Assembly (NCBI GenBank): GCA_963696385.1
Contig: CAVOKF010000003.1
Span: 192,001-256,000 of the forward strand
Reading direction: 5' to 3'
Source: an uncultured delta proteobacterium
Lineage (GTDB): Bacteria; Myxococcota_A; Polyangia; Polyangiales; Polyangiaceae
Length of the DNA stretch: 64,000 bases
This document shows positions 62,830 to 63,003 of the stretch, one piece after another. The translations under genes and the position numbers were made by a program. The notes under the pieces were generated by a model. The model saw nothing but the letters and a program-made list of their open reading frames with translations, was not told where the DNA came from and ran no database searches. Numbering within the stretch: the stretch's first letter is position 1; each line of letters starts with the position of its first letter.

Positions 62830-63003
62830 CTTAGTACAGCACCCCGCTAAACGGTACCCAGCTGCGCTGGGCACGCCTGCGTTGCAGGCTGGCGCTGTAC
62901 TAAGATGATTTCCTTGGGGCTTCGCCCCAAACCCCCAATCGCCTCCGGGCGATTGAAGTACACCGCCCAGCGGATCCCTTTGTTCTTGGGCGGCGTACTT
63001 TAG
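62830..63003. repeat. Dispersed ~170-bp structured intergenic element, copy B (better preserved)
   Basis: CTTAGTACAGC/GCTGTACTAAG stem enclosing three hairpins, followed by GGGGC-TTC-GCCCC, CAATCGCC/GGCGATTG and AAGTAC.CCGCCCA/TGGGCGG.GTACTT hairpins. Confidence 0.85.

Follow-up and report, generated by a model that had tools for sequence, protein, structure and literature searches.

A hairpin repeat of about 170 bases in a Polyangiaceae genome is likely not a new RNA but a decaying MITE in CTNAG targets

Bacteria are known to carry MITEs that have IS630-like ends and give stem-loop transcripts, and the pneumococcal repeat unit (RUP), attributed to IS630-Spn1, is such a case (PMC2229807). RUP and the repeat described here are both short, non-coding and intergenic, RUP having about 100 copies; both have IS630-like terminal inverted repeats (TIRs) and a stem-loop transcript, and in both the link to a transposase is drawn from shared ends. 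They differ in that RUP measures 107 bp, has a TA target and belongs to a class that PMC2229807 describes as A+T-rich, whereas the present repeat measures 165 bp, is G+C-rich, duplicates TNA in CTNAG and holds two inner inverted copies of its ends. A TA target is common to the IS630/Tc1/mariner group (PMC7325037). For IS630 a 2-bp duplication in CTAG is given in Table 1 of PMC2577343, which lists a 3-bp duplication and the motif MYTNARK for Tc5. The CIR repeats of Caulobacter and Brucella are built like our repeat from two self-folding arms joined by a linker and not from one end-to-end stem, but in PMC2229807 they are listed without true TIRs and with duplication and mobiliser unknown, while the present repeat has defined ends, a duplication and a likely partner.

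Dispersed intergenic hairpin repeats with stable small loops also include REP/REPIN sequences with their RAYT and the ends of IS200/IS605 elements. REP/REPIN and IS200/IS605 are not known to make a target duplication, as is the case for HUH elements, and need a Y1 enzyme; derivatives of IS200/IS605 or IS91 would moreover be expected to lack TIRs and to be linked with a Y1 or Y2 gene. The repeat studied here differs from them by the presence of a duplication, and no Y1 gene was found in its genome. Elements of the IS1031/ISL2 and Harbinger groups duplicate TNA or TWA.

The window analysed here is a stretch of 64,000 nucleotides from a Polyangiaceae genome of 6.94 Mb (G000), and two copies of the repeat (A and B) lie within it. 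About 70 intergenic copies with sharp ends, bipartite TIRs and a 3-bp duplication are present in this genome, and their ends are shared with elements encoding IS630-family proteins. Thus the repeat is short and multi-copy, carries no transposase gene, and has TIRs, a target-site duplication seen at empty sites and the ends of an autonomous element, as is typical for MITEs. We consider it very probable that it is a non-autonomous MITE of about 165 bp inserted in CTNAG with duplication of TNA, the likely mobiliser in trans being a DDE enzyme from an IS630-group branch that duplicates TNA. The observation holds, and the repeat is likely not a new RNA.

Copies A and B are 76.5% identical across 162 nt (BLAST, E=3e-26), in agreement with the identity of roughly three quarters estimated in the sequence-only reading. 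Copy A (7809..7974, plus strand) is the most decayed of 28 near-full copies, being 79% identical to the consensus. It starts on the stop codon TAA of erpA (7806..7808, plus strand), which is its left target copy, while its right junction (7975-7979) reads TCAAG and is degenerate. The erpA gene upstream (7485..7808, plus strand) matches NF010147 with 124 bits at a cut-off of 117, and rnpB, the class A RNase P RNA, lies downstream (8131..8549, plus strand; RF00010, 273.7 bits). Copy B (62834..62999, plus strand), delimited by its sequence, the family alignment and the family ends, runs from GTAC to GTAC plus an extra T (62999). Its left target copy TTA (62831..62833, plus strand) is preceded by C, and its right target copy TTA (63000..63002, plus strand) is followed by G and represents the stop codon TAA of eno on the minus strand. 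The 3′ part of eno (63000..64000, minus strand) runs off the window and matches TIGR01060 with 514 bits; a DUF362 gene follows downstream of eno (61631..62791, minus strand; PF04015, E=2e-22). Thus the two gene names, and the observation that each copy abuts a stop codon, were correct. Copy B occupies the spacer between eno and the DUF362 gene, and in many orthologs of the genus the same gene starts after eno. A tRNA gene is present in the window at 51021-51093 (minus strand), and a second, divergent enolase gene (55% identity) lies in a mobile-element-rich region of the same genome (G000 C6:70565-71524).

The block had been reported as present twice, which is wrong. A whole-genome BLASTN search with copy B gave 72 matches, and a profile built from the 28 near-full copies found 69 loci in the genome, all intergenic and some of them fragments, against none in its reversed sequence, the closest further copy being located 4 kb beyond the window. 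Outside the 69 loci about 18 further solo ends or miniatures were detected, with three and zero matches in reversed controls. None of the 69 loci overlaps by more than half with a predicted gene, the gene set for these context counts being our own crude codon-model prediction of 5,747 genes. Identity to the consensus ranges from 79 to 96% (median 89%), and no two copies are more alike than 96%; according to these values the copies are old and show no sign of recent activity. Two of the six frames of the element are stop-free. Nevertheless, at about 165 bp it is too short to code for a transposase.

Several derivatives were observed in the same genome. Four tandem partial units of about 60 bp, consisting of the central and right part, are located downstream of a response-regulator-like gene (G000:C7:49921-50142), and miniatures of 43-60 bp hold little beyond the two ends or the right module alone (G000 C6:342703-342748, C1:249350-249392, C7:955318-955376, C7:1196564-1196610). 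Left-end fragments at G000 C7:1138314-1138392 and C4:280523-280571 adjoin host-DNA deletions of about 84 and 64 bp compared to the sister genome G003. Thus decay of the element removes neighbouring sequence. A low-complexity stretch (L409:414-582, G000:C7 near 72.1-72.3 kb) has about 40 weak matches in G003 and is probably repetitive coding sequence.

The boundaries of the element are sharp, reading C-TNA followed by GTACAGCGCCCC on the left and GGGGCGGTGTAC followed by TNA-G on the right, with unrelated flanks directly beyond. The TIRs agree at 11 of the 12 outer base pairs and at 17 of 29 overall. In copy B they comprise about 29 bp each (left 62834..62862, plus strand; right 62970..62998, minus strand), and the left one is bipartite with an outer 12 bp and an inner CCAG-type motif. 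Within the genome the flanking triplet is exactly repeated in eight of the 28 two-ended copies (permutation p=0.07); this weak signal is due to blurring by decay. The sister genome G003 (92.6% identical) has an ortholog in the DNA compared for 19 of the 69 loci. Three of these insertions are common to both genomes and predate the split of the two species, and 16 loci are without the element. At 13 of the 16 empty sites a single T-N-A fits the junction, two are uninformative and one, that of copy B, is an exception. Nine two-ended copies correspond to one triplet in G003, which is TTA in five cases (C4:611366, C4:631861, C7:72591, C5:1451474, C3:282894), TCA in two (C4:399403, C7:1164632), TGA in one (C4:244432) and TAA in one, namely copy A with GGCC-TAA-G. 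For four truncated copies the G003 junction reads TNA-G.

Copy B is missing from G003 and from one contig of run X9, and in both the empty site is CTAG and thus one base short; the X9 contig may share the G003 lineage. Many eno orthologs end in TAG, and therefore CTAG may be ancestral at this site. The exception may result from base loss at this site or from an irregular insertion, and the junctions of copy B do not read as a TA duplication. The extra T at the right end of copy B also occurs in about nine other copies. Such copies were considered as marks of CTAG targets, which was rejected, since three of them have CTTAG empty sites, while one is ambiguous and one has no ortholog.

The junctions between erpA and rnpB and between eno and the DUF362 gene, proposed for an empty-site comparison, lack the element in 28 of 28 and 26 of 26 other genomes of the genus, respectively, a tally that includes the unpublished genomes G010 and G042 and that could be read base by base only in G003. 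Thus the element is not fixed at these loci, and its interpretation as a non-autonomous mobile element is supported by the empty sites as well as by its multi-copy state. The predicted action as folded single-stranded DNA was not borne out. It would make the element REP/REPIN-like or IS200/IS605-derived and moved by an HUH transposase, which we regard as very unlikely. In its favour, the fold is very stable on either strand, the minus strand shows GNA-type loops, and the genome contains five IS91-type (Y2) matches. However, the 3-bp duplication at 13 of 16 empty sites and TIRs that match DDE elements of the IS630 type argue against this mode, no copy is located within 26 kb of any Y2 gene, and the search for a flanking RAYT/TnpA(Y1) gene failed, as PF01797 had no match in the genome with six of 14 controls positive. 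A reading with an IS608-like guide, in which a TTAG cleavage site goes with an AAAC guide ahead of the first hairpin, seemed reasonable on inspection but was abandoned after the duplication and the TIRs had been shown.

Stop codons adjoin 28 of the 69 copies and 501 of the 7,937 CTNAG sites of the genome (2,031 CTNAG sites are intergenic), the former count being based on predicted stops and possibly inflated because the element ends supply stops themselves. The proximity to stop codons is largely explained by the target, since C-TNA-G holds a stop. CTWAG is 6.5-fold rarer than CTSAG in the genome, yet CTWAG is the usual target, and on the top strand of the element TTA far outnumbers TAA. This strand bias is not predicted by a plain MITE model and counts against our preferred reading, as does the compensation between lineages described below.

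A candidate partner was sought by the ends. When species genomes were scanned with the 16-base end, the matches were short elements from other families and a single 1.1-kb element, L097, which has 26-bp repeats, ends of the form TAA followed by GTACAGCGCCCC with TAA on both sides, an HTH frame and a DDE_3 frame. It occupies the CTAAG junction in a tandem repeat (2322-2503) that itself resembles a TAA-flanked MITE with other ends. Full elements with such ends measure 1.1-1.3 kb, and their two frames are joined at a T-run/C-run site. The NF033545 scores were 143 bits for L097, 153 bits for L427 and 137 bits for L458 (cut-off 100). At least one T-N-A end followed by GTAC was present in 66 of the 80 closest metagenomic relatives of L097 (59-100% identity). 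A profile of 87 autonomous ends reads GTACAGCtCCCCGCAAGTggGTGaCCAG; the inner part of the outer left end of the MITE scores p=0.005 against it, and that of the outer right end exceeds all 20,000 random 30-mers. The inner end copies fail the inner part of the profile (62891..62904: p=0.42).

G487, a genome of the same family as the host, carries both the 1,232-bp element L427 and a member of the MITE family, L451. The latter matches the MITE with E=3e-28, is flanked by TTA on both sides and has an end identical to that of L427 at 25 of 29 positions. L427 agrees with the MITE consensus at 21 of 29 positions on the left and 22 of 29 on the right, which is the joint best of 105 ends. Eleven further end matches, mostly at contig edges, indicate that L427 is multi-copy in G487; five of them were read and all five are L427 ends. 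In the window's genome (assembly 96% complete) no transposase with MITE-type ends was found, nor was one detected in 30 other genomes of the genus. Therefore the connection depends on the similarity of the ends and on a single genome from a different genus. IS-sized end pairs in the own genome were only chance pairs or pairs of MITE fragments, and its large-repeat self-comparison contained no element with MITE ends among the matches listed. With the best seven candidates per genome considered, partner elements were found in at least one of 383 genomes of the family and at least one of 401 genomes of the phylum. The IS630 elements of the window's genome fall into three types, all TA/CTAG, whose ends differ from those of the MITE (9-13 of 29 positions matching), and their proteins are about 30-42% identical to the partner type over long stretches.

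Among 39 full elements with both ends the triplet is repeated in 19, reverse-complemented in 18 and different in two. The 18 inverted cases are attributed to collapsed assemblies, because 31 of the 39 have a flank below 200 bp and L427 is demonstrably collapsed; of the other eight, five repeat the triplet and three differ. The triplets of L434 also differ, and this mixed picture weighs against the preferred reading. In unrelated short elements of other families with the same ends, which reads are able to span, the triplet is repeated in nine of ten and four of four cases, and a full copy of the MITE family in G024 is flanked by TTA and TCA. One such family in G013 is a young MITE of 155 bp with ends of TNA followed by GTACAG and an unrelated palindromic interior (L341, L357, L359, L360), for which TAA/TAA and TTA/TTA copies are both present; its near-identical copies suggest a recently active partner that was not assembled there. 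G000 itself has a second MITE, young and 100 bp long, which occupies 30 loci (e.g. C6:148624-148723), most of them 98-100% identical, and reads CTA-GTACCTCG...GGGGTAC-TAG with hyphens at the boundaries. Its ends match the TA-type IS630 present in seven to eight copies in G000, and several of its copies lie in or beside other IS630 elements.

A 3-bp TNA duplication in CTNAG would also fit a transposase of the IS5 family (IS1031/ISL2 type) or a PIF/Harbinger-like one. This origin appears highly unlikely, since the full-length element with the exact ends encodes an IS630-type DDE_3 protein, as do its relatives and L427, and the genome yielded no element of IS size, whatever its family, that has both ends, the IS5 survey having covered the window's own genome. 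The partner elements carry the HTH and DDE_3 parts of IS630, exceed the NF033545 cut-off and share with IS630 a palindromic C-T...A-G target, but differ from it by a 3-bp TNA in a 5-bp target in place of a 2-bp TA in CTAG. They are therefore filed under a TNA-duplicating IS630-type branch. In a tree whose in-group was chosen by similarity this branch is separated from the genus's TA-type elements, and the two types differ visibly in the residues after the second catalytic Asp (DNxxxHxGKxV versus DNxxxHxxPxV-like). For 3,734 protein clusters the match to L097 reaches E<=1e-60, with ends checked in part of the set. In the plasmid collection the best-covering IS630 proteins are at most about 45% identical to the branch, one of 2,214 matching records exceeds 60% identity, and neither copy B nor L427 has a DNA match. 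The literature searched contains no description of a TNA-duplicating IS630 or of the repeat; ISfinder and the catalogue of bioRxiv 10.1101/2024.01.18.576219 lie beyond that search and may list either. Tc5 of Caenorhabditis elegans also duplicates TNA in a CTNAG-type target. It is eukaryotic, and the resemblance may be due to convergence.

The distribution of the MITE is narrow. Copy B matches five of 24 genomes of the same genus and none of 16 genomes from other families, of 400 genomes from the order two contain the left-end pattern, and these two belong to the same genus, and L081, a Polyangiaceae record, holds a family member. A structured non-coding RNA of the host, one of the proposals of the sequence-only reading, would be expected to fold strongly, as young copies do, and contigs of one RNA run cover the element, although as contigs they give no strand, ends or level and may derive from DNA. 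Such an RNA is nevertheless extremely improbable given the presence in five of 24 genomes of the genus, the empty erpA and eno junctions of all others compared, the loss of the fold with age and the Rfam search, which at gathering and E-value thresholds gave nothing on the element and thus no match to any described family.

The architecture of copy B was described correctly: folding yields a cloverleaf whose closing stem (62830-62843/62891-62904, 13 of 14 pairs) encloses three small hairpins, and three more hairpins follow. Closure of the stem is due to an inverted copy of the outer left end that lies further inside the element and has a TAAG target-like flank (62891..62904, minus strand), which explains the cloverleaf. 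In the left module (62834-62900) folding predicts two small hairpins at 62854..62889 (plus strand), GTACCCAGC/GCTGGG(T/C)AC and GCCTGC/GCAGGC; in the former, the inner half of the left repeat folds back on itself. The hairpin CCG-CTAAA-CGG occurs in certain copies, B among them, whereas in the consensus the loop is GTTGAAC and the helix competes with the longer GTACCCAGC/GCTGGGTAC stem. A central hairpin pair follows (62914..62955, plus strand), consisting of TTGGGGC-TTC-GCCCCAA, which gives GCGAAGC on the minus strand, and CAATCGCC/GGCGATTG. The last hairpin, the right module, arises because the right TIR pairs with its inverted inner counterpart, a copy of the outer right end (62956..62968, plus strand). 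As reported, GCGAAGC and GCGCAGC are found on the minus strand of both copies, and 35 of the 36 genome matches to the motif of the central hairpin fall within the element. Folding z-scores of copy B were -8.6 as DNA and -8.7 as RNA for the plus strand and -7.8 as RNA for the minus strand, with none of 200 shuffles as good. In copy A (z -0.2 on the plus strand, -2.8 on the minus strand) the plus-strand fold is lost. The more a copy has diverged, the weaker it folds (rho -0.74 and -0.87).

Each inner copy changes together with its own outer end between lineages; the inner right-end copy, for example, does so with the right TIR in G003, G024 and G487. Thus the stems covary across more than the two copies of the window. 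In 13 hand-picked copies from four genomes we counted 12 two-sided cells in seven pairs, compared to 3.2 in shuffles (none of 500 reached 12) and one to four in slid controls, a test that is inflated by relatedness. Among the 28 copies of the window's genome, Watson-Crick pairing is restored by 22 of 32 double changes, substitutions run at a rate of 0.09 in stems versus 0.16 in loops, the C-GAA-G loop is kept at the central hairpin in 23 of 28, and C-GCA-G or C-GAA-G stands at the first hairpin in 15 of 28. Together with the number of copies abutting stops, the covariation, the stem conservation and the central loop would suit a MITE by origin whose fold came under selection because the hairpins, or the inner ends serving as additional transposase sites, raise mobility or tolerance in transcripts, e.g. 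through stabilisation of mRNA 3′ ends. This addition is compatible with the MITE explanation and possible, but on balance we doubt it. Private mutations are not depleted in stems (0.69 per site versus 0.74 in loops, p=0.71) and shared ones only weakly (0.60 versus 0.80, p=0.12), wobble pairs show no strand preference (p=0.14), and 246 of 278 changed pair cells are one-sided. Furthermore, all four gene contexts occur among 30 full-span copies (convergent 10, co-directional 9 and 6, divergent 5), copy B yielded neither an intrinsic terminator-like nor a sigma-70-like site, and template switching between the arms explains the paired changes without selection, though selection may have acted in source copies. 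According to this, a structured RNA or terminator finds no support as the element's primary nature, while the compensatory stem changes between lineages stand.

In the MITE explanation the transposase would bind the two outer 29-bp ends, excise the element as double-stranded DNA and, cutting across the CTNAG target with a 3-nt stagger, insert it there. The partner would have entered the lineage both earlier and later than its separation from the sister species and then been lost, and the copies left behind would now be decaying. The hairpins would arise from the inner inverted copy of each end, giving two small end-to-end modules and a palindromic spacer, and fold-back synthesis or template switching would keep each inner copy in step with its own end. 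Copies would persist at stops and in spacers, the target holding TAA, TGA or TAG on one strand and insertions within genes being removed. A bolder extension is improbable in our view, though less so than the HUH, IS5/Harbinger or host RNA readings: a large and apparently undescribed IS630-type branch would cut CTNAG with a 3-nt stagger as a prokaryotic counterpart of Tc5, and the MITE would be a four-ended fold-back adaptation, with inner ends and GNA-loop hairpins whose pairing is maintained from genus to genus and which take part in transposition or fix the orientation in the target.

The family is a decaying MITE of a known kind, unusual in its 3-bp duplication and its four-ended fold-back build. 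As an ordinary product of an insertion sequence it explains away the apparent RNA cloverleaf. The value of the case lies in the partner, an IS630-type branch that duplicates TNA versus the textbook TA of the group and that is common in metagenomes and almost missing from the plasmid collection. For this branch the present case adds empty sites and a co-resident partner, and TA- and TNA-type enzymes of about 40% identity would make the basis of the target-cut stagger directly testable.
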